A program made the translations under genes and the position numbers. Shown piece after piece: positions 1,260 to 59,690 of a DNA stretch of 64,000 nucleotides. Under the pieces are notes generated by a model that saw nothing but the letters and a program-made list of their open reading frames with translations, did not search any database and was not told where the DNA came from. The DNA lies in assembly GCA_965206655.1 (NCBI GenBank), contig CBDBKC010000038.1, positions 831,430 through 895,429 of the forward strand, read 5' to 3'. Every line of letters begins with the position of its first letter. Within the stretch, counting starts at the first letter, position 1. This stretch comes from Bryobacterales bacterium (GTDB taxonomy: Bacteria; Acidobacteriota; Terriglobia; Bryobacterales; UBA6623).

Positions 1260-4200
1260 CTACGCTGAGACTAGCGCTCGTTCTTCTTCGTAGCGATCGG
1301 CTAGGGCGCGCTTGAGTTCCTTCGGGAAGACCTTGATGAACTTGGGAAGCATCTCTTCCCAGTGATCCAGGACCCATCGGCCCTTCGGACTGTTGGTATA
1401 GCCGACGTGGCGCTCGATCAGGCCCTTCACGAACTGAATGTCTTCGGGTGCGTCGAGCGGTTCGAGGTCGACCATGGAATGGTTACAGGCTCGGTCGGCG
1501 AAGTCGCCGGCTTCATCGAGTACGAAGGCGAAGCCGCCGCTCATACCCGCACCGAAATTGCGGCCGGCTCCGCCCAGAATGACGACGCGTCCATTCGTCA
1601 TGTACTCGCAGCCGTGGTCGCCGATGCCTTCGACGACGACCGTCGCGCCGCTATTACGGATACAGAAGCGCTCGCCGGCCATGCCGTTGACGAATGCTTC
1701 TCCGGCCGTCGCGCCGTAGAACGTGACGTTGCCGATGATGATGTTTTCTTCGAAGACGAAGTTCGAACCGGTGGGCGGGAAGACGATCAGGCGTCCACCG
1801 GAAAGTCCCTTGCCGAAGTAGTCGTTGGCGTCGCCTTCGAGGGTCATCGTCATGCCGGGTGATGCCCATGCGCCAAAGCTCTGTCCGGCGGAACCCTTGA
1901 AGCCGATTCGGATCGTGTTGTCCGGCAGGCCTTCGTTGCCGTAGCGGCGCGCGATCTCGGCGCTCAACATCGTGCCGACGGTGCGGTTGATGTTGCGGAT
2001 CGGCATTTCGATCTCGACAGGCCGCTTGTTCTCCAGCGCCTGCTGTGATCGCTCGATGAGCTCGTTGTCGAGCTGCACCTCGAGTCCGTGGTCCTGTTTG
2101 GTCGTGCAGTAGCGCGGCACGCCGCGATCCACCGGCGGATCGAAGAAGACGCGGCTGAAGTCGAGTCCGCGCGCCTTCCAATGATCGATAGCTTTCTTGA
2201 CATCGAGCTTGTCGACCTGCCCGATCATCTCGTTGAAAGTGCGGAAGCCGATCTCGGCCATGATCTGGCGCGCTTCTTCGGCGATGAAGAAGAAGAAGTT
2301 GATGACGTTCTCCGGCTTGCCGTCGAACTTCTTGCGCAGCTCGGGGTCCTGCGTCGCGATGCCTACCGGACAGGTGTTGAGGTGACACTTGCGCATCATG
2401 ATGCAGCCCACCGAAATGAGCGGCAGCGTGGAGAAGCCGAATTCCTCGGCCCCGAGCAACGCGCCGATCACGACATCGCGGCCGCTCATGAGCTTACCGT
2501 CGACCTGGACCTTGATGCGGCTGCGCAGGTCATTCATCACGAGGACTTGCTGGGTTTCGGAGAGGCCGAGTTCCCAAGGCGTTCCCGCGTGGCGGATTGA
2601 ACTCATCGGTGACGCACCGGTACCGCCATCATGTCCGCTGATGAGGACGAGGTCGGCATGCGCTTTCGAAACGCCCGCGGCGACGGTACCGACACCGACT
2701 TCGGAGACGAGCTTCACGGAGACGTTGGCGCGGTTGTTGGAGTTCTTCAGATCGAAGATGAGCTGCGCGAGGTCTTCGATCGAATAGATGTCGTGGTGCG
2801 GCGGCGGCGAGATGAGCCCAACGCCGGGGGTCGAGTGCCGCAGCCGGGCGATGGTCTCGTCGACCTTGTGGCCGGGAAGCTGTCCGCCTTCGCCGGGTTT
2901 GGCGCCCTGGGCTACTTTGATCTGGAGCTCGTCGGCGTTGACGAGGTATTCGGCTGTCACACCGAACCGCGCGGATGCGACCTGCTTGATCGCGCTACGG
3001 CGCCAATCGCCATTCGGATCGCGAGTGAAGCGATCCGGGTCTTCCCCGCCCTCGCCGGTGTTACTGCGGCCGCCGATGCGGTTCATGGCGATAGCCAATG
3101 TTTCGTGGGCTTCACGGCTAATCGACCCGAATGACATGGCGCCGGTGCAGAAGCGCTTGACGATGTCTTTAGCCGGCTCGACCTCTTCAATCGGGATCGG
3201 GTGCTCGACCTTCTTGAACTCAAAGAGTCCACGCAATGTGCAAAGACTCTTGCTGAGATCGTTGACGGTGGAGGTGAATTCCTTGAAGCTGCTGAAGTTG
3301 CCGCGTTGGACGGAGTGCTGCAGTTTCGAGACGGTATCAGGGTTCAGCAGATGCTGTTCGCCACGAACGCGGAACTGGTATTCGCCGCCGACGTCGAGTT
3401 TTGTAACGTCGTCGGTGAGCGGCTGGTAGGCGTAGCGGTGTCGCCGAACGGATTCCTGCGCTAGGACATCGAGACCGACGCCTTCGATCTGGGATGTGGT
3501 CCCCGTCAGATACTTGTCGACGATGGACTGACTCAGGCCGACTGCCTCGAAAATCTGTGCGCCGTGATAGCTGCGGACAGTCGAGATACCCATTTTCGAC
3601 ATGACCTTGAGGACGCCTTTGCGGAGGGCTTTGATGTAGTTCTTCGATGCGTCCTCGATGCTCAGCCCGGGCGCAAGCAGCTCGAGCCGGTGCATGTCCT
3701 CGAGGGTTTCGAAGGCCAGGTAAGGGTTGATGGCGGTCGCGCCGTAGCCGAGCAGCAGGCAGAAGTGCATCACTTCGCGCGGCTCGCCGGATTCGACGAT
3801 CAAACCGACATCACCTCGGGTTGTAGCGCGGATGAGGTGGTGGTGTACGGCGCCGAGAGCCAACAGGCTGGGAATGGGGGCCCACTCCTCGTTGACGCCG
3901 CGATCGGAGAGGATGAGGACGCTGTAACCTTGGCGCGCGGCAGCTTCAGCGTTTTCGCAGAGCTCATCCAAGGATTTCTGGAGGCCATCGGCGCCGTCGC
4001 TCGCGCGGAACAGCGTCTTGAGCGTGTGAGCACCGAAACGGATTTTCCCACCGGCCCCATCGAGCGCGCCATTGCCGTACTCAGCCGAGCCGGGTTCGCC
4101 GACGCCCCGGAGCTTCTCCAACTCGTGATTCGTCAGGATCGGTAGGGGCAGCTTCAACTGATGGGCGTGTTCGGCGGATTCCGCGAGCAGATTGCCGTCC

Positions 4201-6659: not shown

Positions 6660-6669
6660 GGGGCGGCTC

Positions 6670-6788
6670 CTGAGGGTCTGTGAAAAAACTGGGGACAGTC
6701 CGCGGCGCGCCGCGTGTGAGCGCTGCGAACAAGGGAGTTACGCGGGCGGCGCTTGGTACAGTCCCCGTTTTTTCACAGACCCTGAGCG
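6670..6788. repeat. MITE-like palindromic element, copy 1 (core GGGGACAGTCC … GGTACAGTCCCC flanked by ctgtgaaaaaa / ttttttcacag)
   Basis: Same ~100 bp element recurs at 32620-32722, 32951-33050, 34210-34318 and 34737-34833. Confidence 0.7.
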
Positions 6789-32619: not shown

Positions 32620-32722
32620 GCCGTGAAAAAACGGGGACTGTACCAAGCGCCGCCGCGTAACTGCTTTGTTCGCGGCGCTCACAAGCGGCGCGCCGTGGAC
32701 TGTCCCCAGTTTTTTCACAGCG
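32620..32722. repeat. MITE-like palindromic element, copy 2 (inverted orientation)
   Basis: About 90% identical to the reverse complement of copy 1. Confidence 0.7.
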
Positions 32723-32740
32723 CCTCAGGCGGAGTTACGC

Positions 32741-34209: not shown

Positions 34210-34318
34210 TGCGAGGGCGAAAAACTGGGGACAGTCCACGGCGCGCCGCTTGCGAATGCGGCAAGCAGAGAAGTGACAGGGGCGGCGCTTGGTACAGTCC
34301 CCGTTTTTCGCGGGTTCG
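34210..34318. repeat. MITE-like palindromic element, copy 4
   Basis: …gaaaaactggggacagtcc…ggtacagtccccgttttt…. Confidence 0.7.
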
Positions 34319-46650: not shown

Positions 46651-48045
46651 TTAATCCCGGCGTAGCACTCCGGCTACAACCCGTTTCGGGACCGCTCCGA
46701 CCCGGATGCGATCGACGACCTTCAGTGTCCTGTTATCCACGACCACAGTGGTATCGTCTCCCGCCGTAGCGATATAGGTGCTGTTACCGTCCGGGGTGAT
46801 GGCGATCCAGTCTGGGTGCTCCCCGACTTCCACAACTTTCAGCAGTTTGTAGTCCGGCAGAGAGTAAGCCACAACGCTGTGATACCACTTGCTGGTTGAC
46901 CACAGGATCTTCTCGTCTGGAGTGATCGCCAAACCGTGGGCGGGAGATCCCTGCAGAGTCCGCTCCTCTTTTTCGTGCCCCGGCGGGTCGGGCATCGTGA
47001 TTCGCCGCACCACCTTCCGTGTCGCAAAATCAACGACCGCGAAACCGTGAAAATTGGAGAGTTGGACGACAATCTCTTTGGTCGACCCGTCCGCATTTGT
47101 TGTGAAGGCCATTGGCCGGATGCCGGCGTCCAGTGTTAGGGTCCACGTAACGGTGTCGGTCGAAGTATCGACGACGCTGATAGTCTTCGCGGGGATTGCG
47201 CCGGCTACGGCAAACTTGCCGTCCGGCGTGACGTAGACGTTGTGGAGCCGTCCATTGACTGGAATACTCTTTACGTTCTTCATCGACACGGTATCGATGA
47301 CGTCCACATAGCCAGGGTCCTCGGCGATTGCCACATAGACCTTGGAGCCATCCTTCGCCGCGGCGCAGTTGTTCGGACGTCCGCTGAGCGGAACTCGCTT
47401 GATGACCTTGAACGTCTTCGAGCTCACGAAGTCCAAGGTCACCAGCGATTCATTGGTCACGTAGATGCGGCGCCCATCGGGAGCAATCGTGATGCCGTGT
47501 GGGACCTCAATGCCCTCAATCATCGCGACGACCCCGTTGGTCGCGGGGTCGATCACGTGAATGTTGTCGCCGGCGGCGTTCGTTTGGAGAACGCGAACTA
47601 CGCCGTCGCCTGACTTTGCCGCCTCGGAATCGGTCTCTCCGTTGACCCAAGCCGCCAGCGTCCGCCATTCCGGATCACTCTGTGATGTCCAGTGTTTGCC
47701 GCCGGCATGGTAGTTGTCGCCACCCGCGGTCTTCGCCAGCGGGTGCAGTAGCATGCGGCTCTCCGTCGGCCGGCCCGGCACGACGAACTGACTCCAGACT
47801 TCAAAGTTCCGGCGTGACTGCTCGTCGTCCCAAGCGGTCGCCCCGTGTTTCAGCTCTTGCAGGGGAGGGCTGCGATGTCCGTGGCAGGTAATGCAGCGAG
47901 CATGCCCGGGGCGCTTCTTCAGAAAGATGGGCTGTACTTGCTCCTTGAAGAAGGGGTAGTCCAGCGACGGTGCTGAAGACGACTGGGCGGAGAGAGTCCC
48001 CGCCGCCAGCACGAAAAGGCTCGCGCGGTTCAGGAATGAATACAT
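46651..48045 (-). CDS. Secreted cytochrome-c-domain (CITCHG) protein fused to a YVTN-type beta-propeller
   Basis: Signal peptide; single CxxCH; repeated …YVTN…/…YVAI… propeller blades. Confidence 0.6.
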   Translation of the reverse strand: MYSFLNRASLFVLAAGTLSAQSSSAPSLDYPFFKEQVQPIFLKKRPGHARCITCHGHRSPPLQELKHGATAWDDEQSRRNFEVWSQFVVPGRPTESRMLLHPLAKTAGGDNYHAGGKHWTSQSDPEWRTLAAWVNGETDSEAAKSGDGVVRVLQTNAAGDNIHVIDPATNGVVAMIEGIEVPHGITIAPDGRRIYVTNESLVTLDFVSSKTFKVIKRVPLSGRPNNCAAAKDGSKVYVAIAEDPGYVDVIDTVSMKNVKSIPVNGRLHNVYVTPDGKFAVAGAIPAKTISVVDTSTDTVTWTLTLDAGIRPMAFTTNADGSTKEIVVQLSNFHGFAVVDFATRKVVRRITMPDPPGHEKEERTLQGSPAHGLAITPDEKILWSTSKWYHSVVAYSLPDYKLLKVVEVGEHPDWIAITPDGNSTYIATAGDDTTVVVDNRTLKVVDRIRVGAVPKRVVAGVLRRD

Positions 48046-48243
48046 AGCATCTACTCCTTGGCGTGGTTATTGTATACCCGCCGGATCGCCGCCGGGACCT
48101 TCGAAAACGGCAGGCGCGCGGCCTCCGGAACGAAAGAGCCGCCTCAAGACGGAGATCGAGATCCAGCGCCTCGACGCCATGACAGACAGGCCCTGGCGAT
48201 AGCCCGGCAACTGTTGATCGTTTATTATTATTCGTCTAGGTTG

Positions 48244-48738
48244 ATGCTTTCGTCCCAACAGCAACTGCCCGAGAACGGCGTCGTCTCGTATGCGGCAACG
48301 GTTAAGCCCGACTGGCTTGACTACAACGATCACATGAATGTCGCGTACTACGTTATGGCATTCGATCGTGCGATCGACGCCTTCACGGATGTGATCGGTC
48401 TTTCCCGCGAGTACGTCGAACGCAAGCATCGCTCGACGGTCGCACTCGAGTCGCATATCTCCTACCTACGAGAGGCATCGCTGGGTGACGAATTGCGCAT
48501 CGACACCCGTGTCATCGATTTCGATGGCAAGCGAGCGCATCTTTACCAAGAGATGTATCGCGGGGATCAGTTGCTCGCTACGCAGGAAACGCTATCGATC
48601 AGCTTCGATACGGCTGCGCGAAAGTCCTGCATATTCGACGAGGCGATCGTCCAGGGCTACGAACGCATGGTCGCGGCCCAGCGCGGACTGCCCTTACCGG
48701 AGCGGCGACGACGCTCCGTGGGTATCCGTCGAAAGTGA
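48244..48738 (+). CDS. Hotdog-fold acyl-CoA thioesterase-like protein
   Basis: ~165 aa; …DYNDHMNVAYYV… resembles the 4HBT/YbgC family. Confidence 0.5.
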   Translation: MLSSQQQLPENGVVSYAATVKPDWLDYNDHMNVAYYVMAFDRAIDAFTDVIGLSREYVERKHRSTVALESHISYLREASLGDELRIDTRVIDFDGKRAHLYQEMYRGDQLLATQETLSISFDTAARKSCIFDEAIVQGYERMVAAQRGLPLPERRRRSVGIRRK

Positions 48739-48911
48739 CCTGCTTTTCGCGATTGTTCCGCGGGAGCCTCCACCTACGCGCGGTGGCTTGCGCCGCGGAT
48801 TCGCAGTGACACGCATATATCCCGTTATCTACTTGTGCGAGCGCGATGAACTCTCTTCGGCCGGCGACTGGGCACGGCTTCCGGGTACAGCGAGGATTGC
48901 ACAGGGATGTT

Positions 48912-49889
48912 CTATTCCTCGAACTCCACTTTGGCTAGATATATGCTCGTCTTCTCTTCGTGTGACGAGTAGTAGCTGAACCACAGCATCCCTTGGTGGT
49001 ACACCATGCCCGGATAGCTCGTGTCCCCTCCACTCGGAAACTCCAACACCGGTTCGTACGACGTCGGCGTCATCCGCCACAGCACCGTACGCCGGGACCC
49101 ATCATCGAGATACTTCCGGCTCCCGGCCCACATCCGCCCGTTCGGCAGCAGTATGAAGTTCGGCCCGCCCGGCCGTTCCGTCATCCGGTCCCAAGCCCAG
49201 TCGCGATAGGGTGGGCGGCTCGTCCCGATCCAGCCCGCATGTCGGCCATCGTCACACCGGCCCAGCATGATGGCCTCTCCGTCGGGGCGGAACCGAATCG
49301 CTGTCTCGTTGATGCACGGTACGTCGAGTTCCCGGATCCGTTTGTACCGCACACCGTCAACTGTTTCATAGAGCACACCTTTGTCTACGTCCCCACCAAC
49401 GCCACGGTAGGTGACCCCGTAACCCTTCCGGCCGTGCCAGCTCACTCGCCAAAGCCACTCTCCGGGCCCGACGACGCGCGACCAGGGCGTCCACCGGCGG
49501 CCGTCTTCGGAGAACGCCACGCGCGAATGAAGCTTGGTCGCGGCCCCCGGCGCCTTGACCGCCACGCCGATCAGCAGCATCAGGCGTCCATCGGGCGCGC
49601 GGGAGATCTTCGGGTCCCGCAAATCAAAGCCCGCGTCGGCCAGCAGCGCCGCCGACTGCCAACGCTCTCCGTCTTCGGACACGATCACCCGAATCTTGCC
49701 GCCGGGACTCACATGATCACCTGCCTCACGGAAGGTGCAGAACCACTTGTCTTGATGGCGAATCAGATCCGTGAAGGCGTTATGCTCGCCCCGGTCCCAG
49801 ATCTTCTTTACCGACACCAGCGTCGCACCCTGCCCAAAGCAGAACACGGCACAACCCAGTGCTATCAGAGCCAAACGAAGTAAGCGCAT
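48912..49889 (-). CDS. Secreted BNR/Asp-box repeat protein (sialidase-like)
   Basis: Signal peptide; SEDGERW and SEDGRRW Asp-boxes. Confidence 0.5.
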   Translation of the reverse strand: MRLLRLALIALGCAVFCFGQGATLVSVKKIWDRGEHNAFTDLIRHQDKWFCTFREAGDHVSPGGKIRVIVSEDGERWQSAALLADAGFDLRDPKISRAPDGRLMLLIGVAVKAPGAATKLHSRVAFSEDGRRWTPWSRVVGPGEWLWRVSWHGRKGYGVTYRGVGGDVDKGVLYETVDGVRYKRIRELDVPCINETAIRFRPDGEAIMLGRCDDGRHAGWIGTSRPPYRDWAWDRMTERPGGPNFILLPNGRMWAGSRKYLDDGSRRTVLWRMTPTSYEPVLEFPSGGDTSYPGMVYHQGMLWFSYYSSHEEKTSIYLAKVEFEE

Positions 49890-50200
49890 GTGAACCTCTC
49901 GTGATCAGTCCCTTCCCGGCGATGCAGAGCTATAGCCACCGCTATCCCAAAGGCGTAGGCGATGATCGAGACGGGATCTCCCATACTTTAGGAATTCCTG
50001 GGGAGTGGACGCCGCGAAGTAGCAGGACCCGGATATCTTATCACCAGCAGGACACCCCACCCACAGGGACCTGAAAGATAACTGGCGATCACGACCGAAC
50101 GTACCAGCCAACAGATCGTTTTCGCCCAGGCAGTTACGCCGGCTGGGAGCGCACCCAGACCAGCGTTCGTCAACCTGATTGCTACTCAATCGTCGCCGAC

Positions 50201-51001
50201 TTGGACTACGCACCGCGCCGATGTTATAAACTCGATTACTCCGTTTCCGTGGAAGACAAGCCGCATACCTCCGTCGTTGTTCCGTGTTGGAACGAATGTG
50301 AATCGCTGCCGGAAGCATTCGAGCGCCTGGAAGCGATGGTTCGGACTCGCCCTGGGTGGGAGGTTCTGTTCGTAGACGACGGGAGTACGGACGGGACGCG
50401 AGAGCTGCTCGAAGACCTTGTGGCTGACTCGCGTTGGGCGGGCCTCCTCACGCACGCTGAGAACCTTGGGCTTGGCGCCGCACTAAAAACCGGGTTCTCG
50501 GCGGCTCGGGGCGATATCGTCTGCACGATGGACTCGGATTGCACTTACCCCCCGGAGCGCATGGACGAACTTGTCGATGTCGTCAAACGCGGAGCCGACA
50601 TCGCCACGGCTTCCCCATGGCACCCTGACGCGAAGCAATCGGGGGAATCCGGGCTTCGCTTCTTCGTTTCGCGCTGCGCTTCTCGTGTACATAGCCTAGC
50701 GTTGGGCCGCCGGATCTACACGCTTACGTCCCTGTTTCGAGCCTACTCAGCGCCGGTTCTCGCGAATATCACGCCTCGCGCGAACGGCTTTGGGGCCGTT
50801 GCCGAAACTCTCGTCAAGGCTGCCCTGGCCGGCTACCGAATACACGAAGTTCCGATGCCCGTCACAACGCGCCGCCATGGGGTTTCAAAAATGAACTCGG
50901 TCGACGCGGTCGGGCAACACGTGCTGCTTTTAACGCAAACCATCGCTTGGCGGCTGCATCCCCAGAACCTCGCTCCCGAAAGGAGCGGCCGTGGAGTCTG
51001 A
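50201..51001 (+). CDS. GT2-family glycosyltransferase (dolichyl/polyprenyl-phosphate sugar transferase-like)
   Basis: …VVVPCWNE…VDDGSTDGT…MDSD… GT2 DxD context. Confidence 0.75.
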   Translation: MDYAPRRCYKLDYSVSVEDKPHTSVVVPCWNECESLPEAFERLEAMVRTRPGWEVLFVDDGSTDGTRELLEDLVADSRWAGLLTHAENLGLGAALKTGFSAARGDIVCTMDSDCTYPPERMDELVDVVKRGADIATASPWHPDAKQSGESGLRFFVSRCASRVHSLALGRRIYTLTSLFRAYSAPVLANITPRANGFGAVAETLVKAALAGYRIHEVPMPVTTRRHGVSKMNSVDAVGQHVLLLTQTIAWRLHPQNLAPERSGRGV

Positions 51002-52010
51002 TCTCCGAGTCGGCATCGTCGGCGCGGGCCGCATTGGCCGGTTTCATTTGGAAACGTGCCGTGAAACCCCGGGCTTCAACATTCGCGCAGTCTGTGATCC
51101 TTCCGACTCGATTCGGAAGTCCTTTGGCACTCACGATGTCGCCCTATACTCGTCCGCTGACGACATGTTGGCTCGCGAGGAACTCGACGCGATCTTCGTT
51201 TGCACCCCTCCGGCTCACCATGTCCCGGTTGCATCGCTCTGCCTGGAGAACGCCATCCCCGTCTTGTGCGAGAAGCCCTTTGGGACCGACCTCGCGGATG
51301 CGGGTACGCTTCTCGACCTGTCGGTCCGGCACCAAACGCCGATCCTGCTCGCCAGTAAGTTCCGTCACGTTCCAGCTATTGCACGAGCACGTGAATTGTT
51401 GCGCGAGAGGGCTATTGGCTCGTTGGTTCACGTTGAAATCGAGTTCTGTGACTACGTCGACATGGCGGGGCGGTGGAATTCCATACCATCTCAATCCGGC
51501 GGCGGAGTCATCGTCGACAGCGGCTCCCACGCATTCGACATGCTACAGTTTGTCGCCGGGCCCCTCCACTGCATACAGGCAATACGAATGAGACAGGTGC
51601 AACCCTTCGCGGTGGAAGATGGAGTCGTCGTTCACGTCGAGACCCAAGAAGGCGCCACTGCCTCTATCACGTTGAGTTGGAGCCTGCCAGCGGTGGGTAC
51701 TCCGTTGCTGCGCCTCAGAGGGGAACGAGGAGAGATCGCGGTCGGATGGCGGGAATCTTGGCTGCGTGTCCAAGGAAACGACCCCGTCCGATTCGGCGCC
51801 GGTTACGACAAAGTCGAGGCTCACCGCGGCATGTATCAGCAGCTCCGGCGGGTCCTCCGATCGGGTACGGCGGCGTGGATCACCAGTGAAGAAATCCTCG
51901 CTGTGTCACGAGCCATCGAATCCGCCTATGCTTCACTCGACAGCGAGAGCCGGGTTACCCTTCCCTCACGCCACGATGAGGCGATAAGTGACTTGGCTGG
52001 GCGGCAATGA
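50991..52010 (+). CDS. Gfo/Idh/MocA-family NAD(P)-dependent oxidoreductase
   Basis: VGIVGAGRIGRFH Rossmann motif; EKP motif (CEKPFG). Confidence 0.85.
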   Translation: MESDLRVGIVGAGRIGRFHLETCRETPGFNIRAVCDPSDSIRKSFGTHDVALYSSADDMLAREELDAIFVCTPPAHHVPVASLCLENAIPVLCEKPFGTDLADAGTLLDLSVRHQTPILLASKFRHVPAIARARELLRERAIGSLVHVEIEFCDYVDMAGRWNSIPSQSGGGVIVDSGSHAFDMLQFVAGPLHCIQAIRMRQVQPFAVEDGVVVHVETQEGATASITLSWSLPAVGTPLLRLRGERGEIAVGWRESWLRVQGNDPVRFGAGYDKVEAHRGMYQQLRRVLRSGTAAWITSEEILAVSRAIESAYASLDSESRVTLPSRHDEAISDLAGRQ

Positions 52011-52666
52011 GCCAGCCCCCCCTTCACAGCGAAGCCCGAATCCATCGTACGGCTCTCATCGAAGCTGACGTGATTGTTGGTCCGGGCACCGCGGTCTGGG
52101 ACCATGTCCATCTGCGCAGCGGTGCGCGTGTTGGCCGGAAGTGCATTATCGGAGAGAAGACTTATATCGCCGGTGGCGTGATGATTGGCGATCGAGTAAA
52201 GATCAACGGCTTCGTCTATCTCTGCGCTGGTGTCACCATAGAGCGTGGCGCAATGGTCAGCGCGGGAACGGTTTTCACTAACGACCGGAATCCCCGAGCG
52301 ACCACGCCCGACCTGCGGGAACTGCTGGGTTCCGAGATGAACGAAGAAACGGGGCGGACGATCGTGCGCGAAGGCGCCACGATCGGCGCCAATGCCACGA
52401 TCGGGGTCAACGTCGAAATCGGCCGATTCGCAATGGTCGGCATGGGGTCGGTTGTGACGCGCTCGGTACTCGATTTCCACCTCGTCGTTGGAAATCCCGC
52501 CCGCCATATCGGGTTTGTCTGTCGCTGTGGCCTTCGGCTGGCACAGGGTGACGGACCGAACCCTTCGGGAACCGGCCTTTGCTGCCGTCGCTGCGAAAGG
52601 AACTATCTGCTGACGGAAAGGGTTGTCACCGAGCTCGAGGCCGGCGATTTTGGAGACAACGGCTGA
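52007..52666 (+). CDS. Left-handed beta-helix (hexapeptide-repeat) sugar N-acetyltransferase-like protein
   Basis: Repeated [LIV]G.... hexapeptides (IGDRVKINGFVYL, IGANATIGVNVEIG). Confidence 0.75.
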   Translation: MSQPPLHSEARIHRTALIEADVIVGPGTAVWDHVHLRSGARVGRKCIIGEKTYIAGGVMIGDRVKINGFVYLCAGVTIERGAMVSAGTVFTNDRNPRATTPDLRELLGSEMNEETGRTIVREGATIGANATIGVNVEIGRFAMVGMGSVVTRSVLDFHLVVGNPARHIGFVCRCGLRLAQGDGPNPSGTGLCCRRCERNYLLTERVVTELEAGDFGDNG

Positions 52667-52667
52667 A

Positions 52668-53351
52668 GTGACGCCGCGAGGACGGAGCTGGGCGGTCATC
52701 GGTGGCGGCATGCTCGGCATGACGCTTGCCACAAAGCTTGCCCGCCTCGGTGCGCGAGTGGAGATCTTCGAATCCGCGCCTCATCTCGGCGGCTTGGCGG
52801 ATGCCTGGACACTCGGCGACATCACCTGGGACCGCCACTATCACGTCATCACGCCGTCTGACACTCAATTGCTGGCGCTTCTCGATGAGATCGGACTGAC
52901 CGCAGAGATCGAGTGGTCTCAGACGCGTACCGGCTTCTATGCCGGTGGCAAGCTCTATCCGATGTCAACCGCCGCCGACTTCCTGCGCTTCCCGCTCCTC
53001 GGTATCGCGAGCAAAGTTCGGCTCGCCGCCACGATGGCGTATGCATCCCGTATACGCGACTGGAAACGTCTCGAACAGATTCCTGTTGACGAATGGCTTC
53101 GCCGCTGCTCCGGCCGCGCCGCCTTCGATACGGTTTGGAAGCCGCTGCTCACGGCGAAGCTCGGCGAGAGCTATCACGACACCTCCGCCGCTTTCATCTG
53201 GGCTACGATCGTGCGCTTATACAAGGGCCGGACGGGCGGCAAGAACCGCGGCTCCTTCGGGTACGTTGGTGGCGGCTATGCACGCATTATCGAGAAACTG
53301 GAAAGCAACCTAAGGGAACGGGGTGTCTCAATCTCACTACTGTCCGGCTGA
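52668..53351 (+). pseudogene. FAD/NAD(P)-binding oxidoreductase (amine-oxidase/UDP-galactopyranose-mutase-like), 3'-truncated by IS insertion
   Basis: VIGGGMLGMTLATKLARLG…E dinucleotide fold; reading frame ends …SLLSG* inside the IS inverted repeat. Confidence 0.5.
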
Positions 53352-54661
53352 TAAGCGGTGGGCGGCCTGCAACTGGTTGTAGAAAAGTGGGTTAGGTGTT
53401 GTTTTTTCTTGCCGCGATTTGAGCGGCGGTGCGCCGTTTGAGCGTCATCCGTCCTGAGCCGACAATGGCTCATGAATCTGGGCCGCACCGTATTCGCGCA
53501 GTTGATCAGCTTTCTTCCGGATCGCGAGTTCCGGCGCTGTGTGGCCCGCTACGATGGCGACCGGGGCTCGCGCAGCTTCTCCTGCTGGGATCAGTTCCTC
53601 TCGATGTCCTTCGCCCAGTTGACCTACCGCGAAAGCCTCCGCGATATCGAAGCGTGCCTGCGTTCGCTTGGCGGCAAGCTCTACCACATGGGATTCCGCG
53701 GCAACGTCGCGCGCTCGACACTGGCCGACGCTAACGAGTCGCGCGACTGGCGGATCTATGCCGATTTCGCTCAGGCCTTGATTCGCATCGCGCGGCCCTT
53801 GTATGCCCGCGATCCGATCGGCGTGGATCTCAATCAAAGTCTCTACGCTCTGGACTCGACCACCATCGACCTGTGCCTCTCGCTGTTCCCGTGGGCCAAG
53901 TTCCGCCGGCGCAAGGCCGCCGTGAAGATGCACACGCTGTTGGACCTGCACGGTAACATCCCCACGTTTATCCGCATTACCGACGGCAAAACGCACGACG
54001 TCAACATCCTCGACGAGTTCCTACCCGAGCCCGGCGCCTTCTACGTTATGGATCGGGCCTACGTGGATTTCGAACGCCTCTTCGTGTTCACCCTCTGCTC
54101 GTCGTTCTTCGTCGTGCGAACCAAGAAGAACATCTTGCTCCAACGGCGCTACTCGCATCCCGTCGACAAATCTACGGGCGTGCGCTCGGATCAGACCGTC
54201 ATACTGACTGCCATCGAATCGGCCAAAGTCTATCCGGACCCGTTGAGGCGCGTCAGCTACGTCGACGCCGCGACGAACAAGCGGCTGAAGTTCCTGACCA
54301 ACAACTTCGCGCTCCCGGCACTGACCATCGCCGAGATCTACCGTTCGCGCTGGCAGGTGGAGCTGTTCTTCAAGTGGGTCAAGCAGCACTTGCGGATCAA
54401 GAAGTTCTACGGCGCCAGCGAGAACGCCGTGAAGACCCAGATTTGGATCGCCGTCTCGGTGTACGTGCTGGTGGCGATCGTGCGGAAGAGGTTGGGCCTG
54501 GAGGCGAGTCTCTACCAAATCCTACAGATTCTCAGCGTTACCCTATTTGAGAAAACGCCCATTTTACAGGCCTTGCAGCCATCAGACTCCCATGAAAACT
54601 TACTCGATCACCCCAACCAGCTGATTCTATTCGACTTCTAACCGGACAGTAGTGACATCAC
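53333..54661 (+). mobile_element. IS4-family insertion sequence (~1.33 kb) with terminal inverted repeats tcactactgtccgg / ccggacagtagtga
   Basis: Inverted repeats seen directly; flanking genes on both sides are truncated. Confidence 0.75.
53472..54641 (+). CDS. IS4-family DDE transposase
   Basis: 389 aa; DDE region with the Y-(2)-R-(3)-E-(6)-K signature ([20 protein letters not shown]). Confidence 0.8.
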
Positions 54662-56494
54662 ATAGTCAGCGGACTCCGGGACCTGTTCGTAGGTGTGACG
54701 AATCGCCTCTGTGTAGCCGTCACCCAGCGACTGTCTCATGTATTTGTTTCCGATGAAGGGCGGGTTGCCCACAACGAAATCGGTCTCGGGCCATTCGGCT
54801 TTGCGGGGGTTGATGTAGCGGAACTCGGGGACCTGCGCGTTTTCGTCGGGGACTTCCTCGCCGGTGACGGGGTGGGGCTTGGTGGTGCGTCCGTCCCAGT
54901 GGGTGACGGGGCGGCCGTGCTCGTCGTTGACGATATCGACGCGGTCCCAGGCGAGGACGGCGTCGCGGGCTTCGATGGTTTTGTAGTCCTTGATGACGGG
55001 TTCGGGCGGCTTGACGTTGCCGCGCGTGCGGAAGTGCCACTGGAGGTAGCCGATCCAGAGAACGGCTTCGGTGATGCGGGCGGCGCGCGGGTTGGATTCG
55101 AGCCCGAGCATCTGATGGGGGTCGACGGTGACGCCGGCGGTTTCGAGACGGCCTTGGGAGTGGCCGAGGTCGTCGAGGGTGTTGAAGACTTCGCCTTCGA
55201 GACGCTTCATGTGTTCGAGCGTGACGTAGAGGAAGTTGCCGGAGCCGCAAGCAGGGTCGAGCACGCGGACGGAGGCGAGGCGGTGCTGGAAGTCGAGGAC
55301 CTCTTTGACGGCGTCTTTGTGCTTGCCCTGGCGGTCGAGCGTGAGGGCGGCGGCTTGGACGGCGGTCCACTCCTCGCGCAGGGGCTCGATGACGGTGGGC
55401 ATGACGAGGCGCTCGACGTAGGAACGGGGCGTGTAGTGCGCGCCGAGCTTGTGGCGTTCGACGGGGTCGAGGGCGCGTTCGAGCAGGGTGCCGAAGATGG
55501 CGGGCTCGACGTCGCGCCAGTCGGCGTTGGATGCGAAGCGGAGTAGGTCGAGCTGATCACGGTTGAGCGGCAAGGCTTGGTGATCGGCGAAGATGCCGCC
55601 GTTAAAGCGCAGCAGGTCGGTGCGGATTTCGGGTGAGAAGCCGCCGCGGTCCATGGTTTTCCAGAGGCCGGGAATGAGGCGCGGGAAGTTTTCCGGCTGC
55701 TCGCGGCATTCATCGAGCAGGCCGGTGAAGCTGCGTTCGGGGAGGAGTCCGACGTCCTCGGCGAACATGGTGAACAGGCAACGCATGAGGAAGGCGGCGA
55801 CGGTGTCGGCGTCGTAGCCCTGCTTTTCAAGGGCCTCGGCGAGGCGGGCGAGATCGTTGGCGATGGATTTCGTGACGCGGGCGGATTCGAGGGACGGGGC
55901 GAGGCTGAGCGGGTCGGTCCAGACGGCGCGGAGTTTTTGTTGGACGGCGGGGTCGGCGAGATCCTCAAGGCGGATGCGGTGCGAGCGGGGATCGGGGAAC
56001 GGAACGTAGGTGGCGCCGGAGCGGGTGAATTCGGAGTAAAGCTCGATGGAGCGGGGCACGTCGGTGACGATCAAGAAGGGCGGACGGCCTTCGGAGGCGG
56101 GGAGGGCGCGGGCGTATTGCTGGGCTTGCCCGTGGGCGCGGAGCATGGCGTTGCCCCAGACCTGGCTGCCGAGGGCTTGATCGGTTTTCTTGGCTTCGAG
56201 GACGAACGAGCCGCGCTTATAGAGGTCGATGAAGCCGCGGCTTTCGGTGCCGTCGGCGTGATGGAAGATGACTTTGCGCTCGAAGACGTAGGTGTTGTCT
56301 TCGAGGCGTTGGGAGGCGGGTTCGGGTTGGGGTAGGTCGAGTAGGGTGCAAAGTTCGGTGAGGAAGAGTTGGTAGTTCTGTCGCTCGGTGCCGCCGGTTT
56401 CGGACCAGCGTTGGATGAACGGGGCGGCGTCTTTCGCGGGCGTGGCGGGGGATTCGGACACGGTTTTCCGGGCGGCGTTCCAGATTAGCATCAC
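54638..56494 (-). pseudogene. MmeI-like type IIL restriction-modification enzyme (N-terminal PD-ExK nuclease + gamma-class N6-adenine methyltransferase), C-terminally truncated by the IS4-family element
   Basis: [16 protein letters not shown] (D…ExK), [10 protein letters not shown] (SAM motif I), VVGNPPFIG (motif IV). Ends …SLLSG* within the IS inverted repeat; helical/target-recognition domains missing. Confidence 0.65.
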
Positions 56495-56768
56495 CAGGCT
56501 TCAATCGGGCATTCTGATGGATGTTCATTCGGTTCTCCAAGGTTGCAGTTGTGGGATAACTCCCGCTTCCCTGGTCCGGGGCCGAATGAACAACCTATTG
56601 AAGATCACATCCAGCGCCCGCAGGTGCGCGGAGTGACATCTCCGATGATTTTATGTTACTCTTTTTGTTTCAGTTAGATAGGGTCCGTATTGAGCGACCT
56701 AGGAAGGGCTTGGCGGGGGGAGAATGTGCGGAAAAGCCCCTCTTGGTTCTCAGATATGGAATTTTGTC

Positions 56769-56797
56769 TTGCCAAAACCTATGAAGTTTGGTATATT
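56769..56797 (+). promoter_or_regulatory. Candidate sigma70-like promoter (TTGCCA-17 bp-TATATT) in an AT-rich island
   Basis: Seen directly; region 56560-56900 is far more AT-rich than its surroundings. Confidence 0.25.
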
Positions 56798-57016
56798 GTA
56801 TTCAAGCCGGGGAGGCAACCCCACCAAAGCGAGACTAACCTCAACCAAAAGACCCCTGAAACTCAACACCTCCCCGGCCCCCCCTTTCTCTCCTCTAGAC
56901 TAGTTGGTTCGAGCACGCATCGCACGTAACGCGTGCTCGTTCGTCAAGTTCACCGTACCGCCGTCTACAGCCGGGGGGCTGTGATACGGTTGATTGAGGC
57001 TTGTGCAACGTAGGTC

Positions 57017-58204
57017 ATGCGGCTGGCGATACTAGGTTCGACGGGGTCCATCGGCGTCAACACCCTTCAAGTCGTTCGAGAGATGGGCCCCGGGAACGAG
57101 GTCTTGTCACTGGCGGCCGGCCGGAATGTCGAGGAGTTGCTCGGCCAAGCGTTGGAATTCCGGCCGCAAGTCATATCCCTCGCCGATGAAGTAGCCCGCG
57201 ACCGTTTTCGAGCCTTGCTTCGAGAGCAGCCCGGCGTTTCGACATACCGTCCCGAGCTTCTGTGTGGAAGCGAAGGCAACCTGGCCGCCGTACAGGCTGT
57301 CGCGTGCGATGTGGTCGTCTCTGCCGCCGTGGGCGTCGCGGGTTTGGAAGCTACCTTCGAGGCCGTGCGTCAGGGCAAACGTGTCGCGCTCGCGAATAAG
57401 GAAGTTATGGTCGCGGCGGGAGATCTCGTCATGCAAGAGGCGGCCCGGACGGGGGCCGAGGTGCTGCCTGTCGACAGTGAACACAACGCCCTGCACCAAT
57501 GCCTGCGGACAGGCGCGCGCAAAGAGGTGCGGAAAGTGATTTTGACTGCCTCCGGCGGGCCGTTCCGTACCACGCCGCAGGCCGAGTTGGAGCAGGTCAC
57601 GCCCGAGGCGGCCCTCAATCACCCCACCTGGAAAATGGGGCCGCGCATTACGATCGATTCGGCGACACTGATGAACAAGGGCTTCGAAGTCATCGAGGCC
57701 TGCCGGCTTTTCGATCTGCGGCCGGACGAGATTGAAGTCGTTGTTCACCCGCAATCGATCGTCCACGCACTGGTTGAGTTCGTCGACGGTTCCGTGATCG
57801 CGCAACTCGCGCCCCCGGACATGAAACTCCCGATTCGCTACGCTCTGACTTATCCGGAACGACAGACCGGCGCCTTGGACCGGCTGCGGTGGGATCGTGT
57901 GAGACAATTAGACTTTGAGCCGCCGGACCGGCGCAAGTTTCCCCTTTTGGGACTGGCCTACCGGGCGCTCGAAGTCGGTGGTACGGCGGGCTGCATCCTG
58001 AATGCAGCCGATGAGATTGCGGTGGAGGCGTTTCTGGATTCGCGAATTCCTTTCCCCGCGATCCCGCGTATCGTAGAAAGCGTTTTGGAACAATCCCGCA
58101 TCGATCAACCTGCTTCAGTCGAAGAGGTTTTGGCCGCGGATCGGGCGGCGCGAGAACGGGCGCGGACAGCCGTTCGCGAGTCGTCCGTCGGGGTTGGCTC
58201 TTGA
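57017..58204 (+). CDS. dxr: 1-deoxy-D-xylulose 5-phosphate reductoisomerase
   Basis: MRLAILGSTGSIG NADPH motif; LANKE; full-length 395 aa. Confidence 0.9.
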   Translation: MRLAILGSTGSIGVNTLQVVREMGPGNEVLSLAAGRNVEELLGQALEFRPQVISLADEVARDRFRALLREQPGVSTYRPELLCGSEGNLAAVQAVACDVVVSAAVGVAGLEATFEAVRQGKRVALANKEVMVAAGDLVMQEAARTGAEVLPVDSEHNALHQCLRTGARKEVRKVILTASGGPFRTTPQAELEQVTPEAALNHPTWKMGPRITIDSATLMNKGFEVIEACRLFDLRPDEIEVVVHPQSIVHALVEFVDGSVIAQLAPPDMKLPIRYALTYPERQTGALDRLRWDRVRQLDFEPPDRRKFPLLGLAYRALEVGGTAGCILNAADEIAVEAFLDSRIPFPAIPRIVESVLEQSRIDQPASVEEVLAADRAARERARTAVRESSVGVGS

Positions 58205-58224
58205 GAAGAGGCTGGTAATTCCGC

Positions 58225-59550
58225 ATGGGACTGATTTGGAACATCGGCGCGTTCATCTTCGTTCTGGGCGTGATGGTGTTGGTCCACGAGATGGGCCACT
58301 TCTTGGCGGCCCGCTACTTCGATGTGAAGGTTGACGCCTTCGCGATCGGCTTTGGACCACGGCTGTTCGGCTTCCGGGGAAAAGAAACCGACTACAAGAT
58401 TTGCATCCTTCCGATTGGCGGTTTCGTCAAGATGGCCGGCGAGAACCCCGGCGAGCCCCCGGAGAGTCCGCGCGACTTCATGGCGAAACCGCGTTGGCAG
58501 CGGATCATCATCGCGCTCGGCGGCCCGGTTTTTAACTTTATCCTCGCGATCGTTCTTCTCGTTGGCCTGTTCATGGTGCGTTACGAGAAGATGGCGTTCC
58601 TTGATGAGCCGGCGCGAGTTGGTTTCGTCGGGGCAGAGTCGGCCGCTGAAAAAGCAGGCATCCAAAGCGGCGACCTGATCGTCGCGATTGACGGGCAGCA
58701 GACGCCTACCTGGGAGAGCGTTAAGCTCAACGAAATCGCCGCGGCGCACTCGACGGTGCAAGTGACCATCGAGCGCAATGGGGGCCGCCTCGACATCCCT
58801 GTCACAATTGACGCCGACGAACAATCGGGCATCGGCAATGCCGGCTGGGCCGAAGAGTCACAAGTTCGCCTCGGCAACACGATGCCCGACATGCCCGCCG
58901 GGAAAGCAGGGATTTTACCGGGCGACCTGCTGATCGCCATCAACGGGCAGGAGATCAACTCGGTTCGGCAAGTGCCGGAAGAGATCCAGAGGATCAAAAG
59001 CGCCGAGGCCGAATTCGAGATCGAACGAGGGACGGAGCGGTTGATGATCCGCATCGCGCCCGTGTTTCACGAATCAGCGATCTCGGGCGATGCCTGGCGC
59101 ATCGGTGTCGATCTGAAGCCGACTCACGAAATCATCAAAACCAGTCTCGCCTTCCCCGACGCCGTCAAGGAAGCGGTCAACTACAGCGTCAACAATGTCA
59201 CATTGACGTTCAAGGTTCTGCGCGGCTTGGTCGAGCAGCGCATGTCCCCTAAATCGATCGAGGGCCCGATCGGGATTGCGCGCATTTCAGGCGACGCCGC
59301 CCGGTCAGGAGTCCCGCAACTGGTGACGATCATGGCCTTGATCAGTTTGCAACTGGGGATCTTCAACCTGTTGCCGATTCCGATTCTCGACGGCGGTGTC
59401 ATTACCATGCTTCTGGTCGAGTCGCTAATCCGCCGCGACCTGAGCCTCGTGGTCAAGGAACGAGTTGCTCAAGTCGGCTTCCTGTTCCTGATTATCTTGT
59501 TCGCGTTCGTCATGTATAACGACATCGTCAAGAGCCTGGGACCCGGCTAA
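58225..59550 (+). CDS. rseP: RIP metalloprotease RseP (site-2 protease) with PDZ domains
   Basis: HEMGHFLAARYF zinc motif; two PDZ; C-terminal LDG motif (PIPILDGG). Confidence 0.9.
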   Translation: MGLIWNIGAFIFVLGVMVLVHEMGHFLAARYFDVKVDAFAIGFGPRLFGFRGKETDYKICILPIGGFVKMAGENPGEPPESPRDFMAKPRWQRIIIALGGPVFNFILAIVLLVGLFMVRYEKMAFLDEPARVGFVGAESAAEKAGIQSGDLIVAIDGQQTPTWESVKLNEIAAAHSTVQVTIERNGGRLDIPVTIDADEQSGIGNAGWAEESQVRLGNTMPDMPAGKAGILPGDLLIAINGQEINSVRQVPEEIQRIKSAEAEFEIERGTERLMIRIAPVFHESAISGDAWRIGVDLKPTHEIIKTSLAFPDAVKEAVNYSVNNVTLTFKVLRGLVEQRMSPKSIEGPIGIARISGDAARSGVPQLVTIMALISLQLGIFNLLPIPILDGGVITMLLVESLIRRDLSLVVKERVAQVGFLFLIILFAFVMYNDIVKSLGPG

Positions 59551-59690
59551 GATAGCGGCTGCAACCAAGCGCCTGGAAATCTAAATGTTCGGAAGCTCAC
59601 TCAGGCGTGATTTGAATCCGCCGTCCGTGTCAAAATAGGAAAGAGTCTGTGGCAGGAAGCTGACCGCCGACTAGAGGAGTCAACGGTTTT

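Follow-up and report, generated by a model that had tools for sequence, protein, structure and literature searches.

The locus and its insertion sequence

An IS4-family insertion sequence (IS) lies between two truncated genes in the window, by which we mean the whole 64-kb stretch of DNA analysed here (Table 1). To its left are three genes of a sugar operon and the 5′ half of a fourth, which encodes an FAD/NAD(P)-dependent oxidoreductase; to its right is the 5′ fragment of an MmeI-like restriction-modification (RM) gene on the opposite strand, followed by a divergent intergenic region and dxr.

Table 1. Positions of genes, repeats and sequence elements around the IS (window coordinates)
Feature	Position	Strand	Size	Basis or remark
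GT2 glycosyltransferase	50201/50249-51001	+		Pfam, NCBIfam
Gfo/Idh/MocA oxidoreductase	50991-52010	+		Pfam, NCBIfam
Hexapeptide-repeat (LbH) acetyltransferase	52007-52666	+		Pfam, NCBIfam
FAD/NAD(P)-dependent oxidoreductase, 5′ half (amine-oxidase / PRK07233-like)	52650-53334	+		Native up to the IS
Left flank TCTCAATCT	53326-53334			Native oxidoreductase sequence; TCTCAATCT runs uninterrupted into CGTTATC in L171
IS4-family insertion sequence	53335-54654	+	1,320 bp	Ends set against 100%-identical copies in L001 and L172
Terminal inverted repeats CACTACTGTCCGG	53335-53347 and 54642-54654		13 bp	Perfect
Transposase gene	53472-54641	+	389 aa	DUF4372 N-terminal domain and DDE_Tnp_1
Right flank ACATCACAT	54655-54663			ATGTGATGT on the RM gene strand; same 9-mer on both sides of the L172 IS
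MmeI-like type IIG/IIL RM gene, 5′ fragment	54655-56494	-	613 codons	Pfam, PADLOC, PDB 5HR4
Divergent intergenic region, RM gene / dxr	56495-57016		522 bp	
Promoter-like site	56769-56797	+		Faces dxr
Hairpin	56910-56939		9-bp stem	-17.3 kcal/mol

The transposase matches DUF4372 and DDE_Tnp_1 in Pfam (E-values of 2.9e-32 and 1.4e-27, respectively) and scores 259 bits (cutoff 115) with the NCBIfam model NF033592, 'IS4 family transposase'. Its translation contains a Y-x2-R-x3-E-x6-K motif; the Y(2)R(3)E(6)K signature, placed downstream of the third catalytic residue, reportedly goes back to a definition by De Palmenaer et al. in 2008. A 14-mer containing the terminal inverted repeat occurs twice in the 64 kb, compared with 0.18 occurrences expected by chance. 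The matches and the repeats agree with the family assignment made in a preliminary description of this locus. Further copies of the element, which that description had proposed to look for, were found. The IS is multicopy: the identical transposase protein is recorded on 49 contigs, and the transposase variants P0133 and P0134 are on the same contig as the window proteins. Its lineage, with protein identities of 77-92%, extends across MAGs of the Acidobacteriota (Bryobacterales, Terriglobia). Among GTDB representatives the best match, at 92%, is in a Bryobacterales MAG, and one genome has more than 20 copies of related transposases. Cut-and-paste transposition through a hairpin intermediate is the mode of IS4-family elements such as IS10 and IS50, and both traits are assumed here from family membership.

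The region between the RM gene and dxr has a GC content of about 0.53, as against about 0.60 elsewhere. It had been described as an AT-rich island with a hairpin; the hairpin is real, whereas the 'island' is merely the divergent intergenic region. Promoter, terminator and Rfam scans of this region gave no Rfam match and nothing beyond one promoter-like site, and the hairpin was not scored as a terminator.

Two gene fragments with IS-encoded tails

Both truncated ORFs run into the inverted repeats of the IS and end in SLLSG followed by a stop codon, as first reported. The oxidoreductase ORF extends from an ATG at 52650 to a TGA at 53349-53351 (ending ...GVSISLLSG), and the RM ORF (54638-56491/56494, minus strand) ends at a TAG at 54638-54640 (ending ...DYVMSLLSG). 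Each ORF enters the IS through one inverted repeat and reads it inward in the same frame as the other does, hence the shared tail; the probability of this coincidence is about 1 in 3.

The oxidoreductase fragment matches only part of two profiles, Pfam Amino_oxidase (positions 3-221 of 443) and NCBIfam NF005560 (2-216 of 435). The near-identical contig L171 is 99.97% identical to window positions 47555-53335 (2 mismatches in 5,781 bp) and has the same upstream order of GT2, Gfo/Idh/MocA and LbH genes. There the oxidoreductase is an intact 449-aa protein (P0389), followed by a polysaccharide deacetylase and then a DegT aminotransferase. Homology of P0389 and L171 to the window stops exactly at the IS edge (53335/53336). 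The gene is truncated as proposed, with no in-frame continuation beyond the IS, but its operon goes on past it, since in the intact allele the deacetylase and DegT genes come after it.

The RM fragment matches the Pfam domains MmeI_N (3.4e-25), MmeI_hel and MmeI_Mtase. The last is matched at profile positions 4-178 of 259 only, leaving an incomplete domain that breaks off at residue 613, and Pfam gave no MmeI_TRD (target recognition domain) match in the window ORF. The fragment aligns with positions 4-605 of 1136 of the PADLOC model PDLC03627 REase_MTase_IIG and, at E=6e-23, with MmeI in PDB 5HR4, including the D...EXK residues: D90, E100 and K102 are invariant in alignment A1 and correspond to MmeI D70, E80 and K82. 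A PD-(D/E)XK nuclease, a helical spacer and methyltransferase motifs I and IV (NPPF) are retained, and the IS splits the gene about 30 codons past motif IV. A full-length methyltransferase of at most ~620 aa, which would have spoken against truncation, is not the usual size in the family: taken from JGI metagenome loci, 59 of 64 relatives are ~1,130-1,250 aa long, and the window holds the N-terminal ~53% of an MmeI-like fusion. The best homologue in JGI metagenomes is a 72% match, and none of these homologues represents an intact orthologous locus.

MmeI is a type IIL restriction-modification enzyme (PDB 5HR4; PMC4833311, PMC2731913) in which the methyltransferase domain spans residues 301-620, with NPPF at 481-484 and a conserved Trp570 (PMC4833311). 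By alignment to these boundaries, the window protein is short of about 100 residues at the end of the methyltransferase domain, a stretch that probably contains the equivalent of Trp570. The preliminary description was right that nuclease and methyltransferase motifs are kept, but loss of recognition does not cover the damage, the rest of the methyltransferase domain being gone too. Judged by its domain content, the ORF is more damaged than an enzyme blind to its site would be: it is a pseudogene fragment and not a functional member of the family.

Several RM homologues of ~600 aa end near the same point, and a mutational or insertional hotspot at YVMYW/W was considered. We judged the pattern to be mostly ranking bias, because any protein of at least about 590 aa scores fully against the 618-aa query. 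The Tyr-Trp-Trp codons are each one step from a stop codon, and one of these homologues has an in-frame TGA with the ORF going on beyond it.

Allelic states and the proposed rearrangement

Of 100 related complete IS copies, 73 are flanked by perfect 9-bp duplications, 3 by duplications with one mismatch and 24 by none (79 loci from the scan of GTDB representatives fed these statistics); the copies in L001 and L172 each have a perfect duplication. The window copy has no target duplication, as its flanks, TCTCAATCT and ACATCACAT, do not match. They come from two insertion sites, the right flank being the L172 duplication and the left flank native oxidoreductase sequence as in L171. By comparison of the alleles, ACATCACAT, or ATGTGATGT on the RM strand, is one copy of the 9-bp duplication from insertion into the RM gene, and TCTCAATCT would be one copy of the duplication left by an insertion into the oxidoreductase gene.

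Contig L172 is 99.92% identical to window positions 53334-59585 and carries, in order, the RM 5′ half, ATGTGATGT, the IS (0 mismatches in 1,320 bp), ATGTGATGT again and the RM 3′ half (551 aa, starting MYWWH). Removing the IS and one duplicate restores an uninterrupted 1,162-aa RM ORF with a complete methyltransferase domain. Because L172 shares the dxr/RM-gene neighbourhood, the RM gene has its native context on the dxr side. Alignment of these alleles shows that an IS inserted into the ~1,162-aa RM gene beside dxr, duplicating ATGTGATGT and splitting the gene. This insertion most likely came first, because a strain represented by a 1,558,774-bp contig has the IS-truncated RM gene (P0121, ending SLLSG) together with an intact oxidoreductase (P0389).

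The missing halves of both genes are retained. The oxidoreductase 3′ fragment (P0388) and the RM 3′ fragment (P0275) are both recorded on a 3,667,040-bp contig, which also records the exact window proteins P0001, P0137, P0141, P0143 and P0144 and the native neighbours P0391, P0392, P0393, P0396, P0400, P0405 and P0406. Four of these neighbours lie downstream of the oxidoreductase gene and three downstream of the RM gene; the deacetylase, DegT, a TonB-like receptor and Nramp are among them. The co-location is taken from the longest-contig field of the protein collection (3,667,040), which carries no gene coordinates. The MmeI TRD (PF20466) sits on the separated RM 3′ fragment (P0275, P0383). 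On the 3,667,040-bp contig that fragment is called at 512 aa, versus 551 aa in L172, which may come from another choice of start codon or from a junction that differs. With both 3′ halves and their downstream neighbours kept on one contig, the genome has lost nothing.

With a probability of about 0.7, we take the window junction to mark where a recent IS-mediated rearrangement broke the chromosome, most probably by inversion rather than by deletion. Following the insertion into the RM gene, a further IS copy would have entered the oxidoreductase gene, in its GT2-Gfo-LbH-oxidoreductase-deacetylase-DegT operon, at TCTCAATCT. Homologous recombination between the two identical, inverted copies would then have inverted the DNA between them. 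A hybrid copy with mismatched flanks would now lie between two 5′ halves in the window, and a second copy would be expected at another place on the chromosome, where it would separate the two 3′ halves. An inversion predicts a reciprocal junction of the form ...GGATGATAACG-AGATTGAGA-IS-ATGTGATGT-ATTGGTGGCAC..., with the 3′ halves diverging from one IS flanked by TCTCAATCT (reverse complement as written) on the oxidoreductase side and by ATGTGATGT on the other. Both genes are inactivated, and on this reading the deacetylase and DegT genes are severed from the operon promoter. As the IS copies are identical, a hybrid copy is not recognisable internally. No GC skew flip occurs at the IS junction in the window, an observation that is uninformative either way.

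Retention of the 3′ halves and their neighbours, mismatched flanks and many identical IS copies would also be produced by a translocation or a multi-step route, in which recombination between direct copies excises a circle that re-integrates at another IS, or in which IS-IS recombinations follow one another. The 3′ halves would then be kept but would not share one common reciprocal junction, and the difference between 512 and 551 aa could mean a different junction. This route takes more steps than one inversion and has no positive evidence in its favour, and we regard it as unlikely.

Under an assembly mis-join, the oxidoreductase gene and the RM gene would each carry a simple insertion, and the assembly path would have switched inside the identical 1.3-kb repeat, within one genome or a mixture of strains. 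The contig is metagenome-assembled, and the near-identical strains L171 and L172 co-exist. The independent short-read scaffold L090 crosses the oxidoreductase-IS junction and backs that junction only, reaching 53 bp into the IS, and no independent sequence runs through the complete IS from one window flank to the other. Against this, contigs of 1.5-3.7 Mb suggest long-read assembly, in which reads normally span a 1.3-kb repeat, and about one quarter of related copies elsewhere are without duplications, so rearranged copies are common. We give a mis-join little weight.

The inversion could also be reversible, flipping within the population, and one orientation would then leave the downstream sugar-operon genes without their promoter. 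Separately, the RM halves could yet assemble in trans, or the nuclease-containing N-terminal fragment could have retained part of its activity. The states seen in L171, L172 and the window are compatible with ongoing switching and with a one-off event equally, and we hold this elaboration to be very improbable.

Equally improbable is the adjacent deletion put forward in the preliminary description, with loss of all DNA between the two breakpoints: the view from the window agrees with it (a single IS between unrelated truncated genes, without a target duplication and, by tblastn of full-length homologues, no second piece of either gene in the 64 kb), but the reading is unsupported because both 3′ halves and their native neighbours, four on the oxidoreductase side and three on the RM side, are on the window's contig. 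For a cut-and-paste IS, deletions and inversions usually arise when two copies recombine. To our knowledge, neither adjacent deletions nor inversions are expected from a single cut-and-paste IS4-family copy, and we know of no adjacent deletions made by such elements, which counts further against a deletion.

An inversion at this locus would be ordinary biology of little general importance. It would provide a clean, fully reconstructable case of a multicopy IS disabling an RM gene and then reshuffling the chromosome of an uncultured member of the Acidobacteriota, and public assemblies still hold all three allelic states. The locus also carries warnings for annotation. Both the 617-aa 'methyltransferase' and the 233-aa 'oxidoreductase' are pseudogene fragments whose tails come from the IS, two truncated genes around one IS need not mean a deletion, and synteny or operon inference across the IS junction would mislead.

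Comparison with known systems

The RM gene has the MmeI layout, in which a single polypeptide begins with a PD-(D/E)XK nuclease and continues with a helical spacer, a methyltransferase and a TRD. Both have a gamma-class N6-adenine methyltransferase with motif I DPACGxGNFL and motif IV NPPF. MmeI has 919 aa, whereas the intact relative of the window gene has ~1,162 aa, and its best PADLOC match is a separate type IIG model (1,136 positions). Unlike MmeI, the window protein stops about 30 residues after NPPF, without the TRD and C-terminal region.

The IS resembles IS10, IS50 and IS231 in its DDE transposase, the Y(2)R(3)E(6)K motif, short inverted repeats, 9-bp target duplication, single ORF and size of ~1.3 kb, and it differs from them in the N-terminal DUF4372 domain of its transposase.

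Chromosomal inversion by homologous recombination between inverted IS copies is a textbook form of bacterial genome plasticity. Only one junction is read at this locus, and in principle the proposed event does not differ from such inversions: the same hybrid IS with mismatched flanks lies between two gene halves, and intact and simple-insertion alleles likewise persist in sister strains.

An IS4 family element between two gene fragments

The insertion sequence (IS) studied here lies between the 5′ half of a FAD/NAD(P)-dependent oxidoreductase gene and the 5′ fragment of an MmeI-like type IIG/IIL restriction-modification (RM) gene that adjoins dxr. A 14-mer containing its terminal repeat is found at just two sites in 64 kb, where chance would give 0.18. 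The transposase scores 259 bits with NCBIfam NF033592, ‘IS4 family transposase’ (cutoff 115), and its translation contains the signature by which IS4 transposases are recognised, Y(2)R(3)E(6)K; the element belongs to this family. Translation of the left ORF ends in GVSISLLSG and that of the convergent right ORF in DYVMSLLSG; both times the inverted repeat, entered from outside in one and the same frame, supplies the final residues and the stop codon. The preliminary description of an IS4-family element in whose repeats both neighbouring ORFs terminate is thus borne out by the repeats, the transposase profiles and the shared tails.

Features of the IS and of the RM gene–dxr intergenic region (window positions)
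Feature	Position	Strand	Basis or remark
Terminal inverted repeats CACTACTGTCCGG	53335-53347 and 54642-54654		Sequence repeat
Whole IS, 1,320 bp	53335-54654		Ends set by 100%-identical copies in contigs L001 and L172
Transposase ORF, 389 aa	53472-54641	+	Pfam DUF4372 and DDE_Tnp_1
Divergent intergenic region, RM gene/dxr	56495-57016		GC ~0.53
Hairpin, 9-bp stem	56910-56939		No T-tract after it

The window copy has TCTCAATCT as its left flank and ACATCACAT as its right flank, and the two do not match. Among 100 distinct complete copies of related elements, taken from 87 loci in Acidobacteriota MAGs (transposase identity 77–92%), 9-bp duplications are perfect in 73, differ by one mismatch in 3 and are absent in 24, which places the window copy in a sizeable minority of rearranged copies. 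One Acidobacteriota genome carries >20 copies of a related IS. In the Bryobacterales MAG CBDFJA01, copies on contigs 4 and 3 (L042 and L051) lack duplications and have the 9-mer AGTTTTAAT on opposite sides, the remaining flanks being ATCGGGGGA and ATCGGGCTC. Two-copy recombination should exchange flanks reciprocally in just this way, and such rearrangements therefore recur in this IS lineage. The 100%-identical copy on L001, another metagenome contig (1-755 and 11376-21170), bears the 9-bp duplication ACAGGTAAC and lies inside a defence-type island with DUF499, DUF1156, SNF2/ResIII helicase, PIN/PhD toxin-antitoxin, integrase and ParA genes.

Allelic states and origin of the junction

L172, a 40-kb ENA contig with 99.92% identity to window 53334-59585, has the order dxr, RM 5′ half, ATGTGATGT, IS (0 mismatches to the window IS), ATGTGATGT and a 551-aa ORF starting MYWWH, followed by a TonB-type receptor and then Nramp. 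Removal of the IS and one duplicate gives an unbroken 1,162-aa ORF reading ...ADYVMYWWHIAAGL..., and L172 is, judged from its sequence, the simple-insertion state of the IS in the RM gene. The Logan contig L171 has 2 mismatches in 5,781 bp to window 47555-53335 and encodes an intact 449-aa oxidoreductase reading ...GVSISLSSGVRAIRPV...; its homology to the window stops exactly at the IS boundary. In a sister strain (1,558,774-bp contig) the RM gene is IS-truncated (P0121, ending SLLSG) and the oxidoreductase (P0389) is intact, so the RM gene was hit first.

Recorded on the source contig of the window (3,667,040 bp) are RM fragment P0001, dxr, the acetyltransferase, the Gfo protein and oxidoreductase fragment P0144. 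Its record also holds P0388 (205 aa), which after a start Met at the GTG codon of residue 245 matches the intact oxidoreductase exactly over residues 246-449, and P0275, a 512-aa C-terminal RM fragment. Present as well are the exact deacetylase, DegT and two more native oxidoreductase-downstream genes (P0391, P0392, P0393, P0396), and the native RM-downstream receptor, neighbouring gene and Nramp (P0400, P0405, P0406). With both 3′ fragments and their native neighbours on record, nothing is missing from the genome, and the IS-mediated adjacent deletion proposed in the preliminary description therefore fails.

The simplest history consists of insertion, insertion and inversion. The IS entered the RM gene, giving the state seen in L172; a second copy would then have entered the oxidoreductase gene at TCTCAATCT; and homologous recombination between the two identical, inverted copies would have turned round the DNA lying between the two genes' insertion sites. 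Orientation agrees with this history: in L172 as in the window, the transposase gene runs antisense to the RM gene, and in the window it has the sense of the oxidoreductase gene. With two copies in opposite orientation, inversion yields exactly the observed order of oxidoreductase 5′ (+), IS, RM 5′ (-) and dxr (+), and the event would be textbook IS-IS recombination. IS4-family transposition is cut-and-paste, which makes it unlikely that a single copy caused a deletion or inversion in one replicative step. Translocation or a multi-step rearrangement has a low probability. An assembler path-switch within the identical 1.3-kb repeat, in what is a metagenome-derived genome, is similarly improbable. 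The oxidoreductase-IS junction is confirmed by the independent short-read scaffold L090, which extends only 53 bp into the IS. Much less likely is a return to the deletion model by way of some duplication artefact.

Other IS variation was observed. P0134, in the source contig record, is a 418-aa transposase variant with its last ~35 residues swapped for 64 unrelated residues, which suggests that the source genome has a further copy of this IS, truncated or rearranged, at a different site. Between rseP and skp, L172 contains a further IS of ~1.67 kb (2075-3745; window ~59581-59585) that is absent from the window; its DDE_Tnp_1_4 transposase is frameshifted and TTTAG stands at each of its ends. 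This is a further strain-level polymorphism <6 kb from the RM/IS junction.

Sugar operon and intergenic regions

The window oxidoreductase matches positions 3-221 of 443 in Pfam Amino_oxidase and 2-216 of 435 in NCBIfam NF005560, about half of each profile, in agreement with its earlier description as truncated. Downstream of the intact gene in L171 are polysaccharide deacetylase, DegT aminotransferase and further genes. The oxidoreductase is inactivated in the rearranged strains only, in which GT2-Gfo-LbH has also been parted from the deacetylase and DegT genes of the operon. Because GT2-DegT-Gfo-LbH-oxidoreductase-deacetylase is a conserved cluster elsewhere (L088, L089), loss of a cell-envelope sugar modification in these strains is plausible. 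DegT lies between GT2 and Gfo in these distant relatives; in the window lineage GT2 directly overlaps Gfo (50201-52010) and DegT is downstream of deacetylase (L171 7454-8671). Compared with the relatives, operon order has been reshuffled in evolution.

The AT-rich island and hairpin noted earlier beside the RM gene are present, as parts of an ordinary divergent intergenic region with nothing special about it. It has a strong promoter-like site towards dxr (TTGCCA, a 17-nt spacer and TATATT, with TG just before the second hexamer), gave no match in Rfam, and is arranged identically in L172. Elsewhere in the window are three copies (6669-6772, 32653-32729, 34220-34308) of a ~90-nt repeat whose terminal palindrome is AAAAACTGGGGACAGTCC...GGTACAGTCCCCGTTTTT; they lie in direct and inverted orientation (84–91% identity), and the repeat resembles intergenic elements of the REP or MITE type. 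The window start (274-383, 479-563, 1042-1173) has a cluster of direct and inverted ~45–110-nt repeats with 76–90% identity.

The truncated RM gene

The RM fragment (54800-56400) stands out in composition, with GC at 0.65–0.675 and + strand GC skew between +0.26 and +0.34, where neighbouring DNA has ~0.60 and ~0. Among its closest relatives (60–73% identity) are Betaproteobacteria, Gammaproteobacteria and members of other phyla; both fit horizontal acquisition before the IS hit. Several independent MmeI-like homologues (60–65% identical, long contigs) are broken within 1–2 codons of the IS site YVMYW/W (L002/L003 7795-7803; L006 7805-7815; P0027, P0038, P0040, P0279). In P0027 an in-frame TGA replaces the conserved Trp and the ORF goes on for 448 codons, P0040 ends TGG TGA TAA before unrelated DNA, and P0279 is a 512-aa C-terminal fragment from another genome. 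This clustering, though slightly above expectation, may reflect ranking bias and nonsense-prone Tyr-Trp-Trp codons.

Pfam matches in the window RM ORF are MmeI_N, MmeI_hel and positions 4-178 of 259 of MmeI_Mtase only, with none to the TRD. The ORF spans positions 4-605 of 1136 in PADLOC type IIG model PDLC03627; a full-length relative on L091 (1,220 aa, 72% identical) spans 5-1131. An ORF of 1,130–1,250 aa (window numbering) was found in 59 of 64 homologues from metagenome contigs (58–72% identity, stop codon inside the contig), which argues against a full-length orthologue of ~620 aa or less and, with the profile coverage, upholds the view of the right-hand gene as a truncated MmeI-like fusion. 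It is a fragment of an enzyme of a ~1,160-aa subfamily, and the RM gene is a pseudogene in every strain seen; the protein collection and metagenome homologues contained no uninterrupted allele of >73% identity.

PD-(D/E)XK nuclease residues D90, E100 and K102 (aligned to MmeI D70, E80 and K82), methyltransferase motif IV NPPF and an 11-residue methyltransferase motif are kept, as first described, and the break falls ~30 residues past NPPF. In MmeI the methyltransferase domain covers 301-620, with NPPF at 481-484 and an invariant Trp570 (PMC4833311). By this map the fragment lacks the C-terminal region and, besides the TRD of the original account, roughly the final third of its methyltransferase domain; from its spacing, the ‘HPW’ tryptophan of the missing part would be the Trp570 equivalent. 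Relative to the MmeI-like type IIG/IIL family, the window gene is without the complete methyltransferase domain and the TRD that the family requires.
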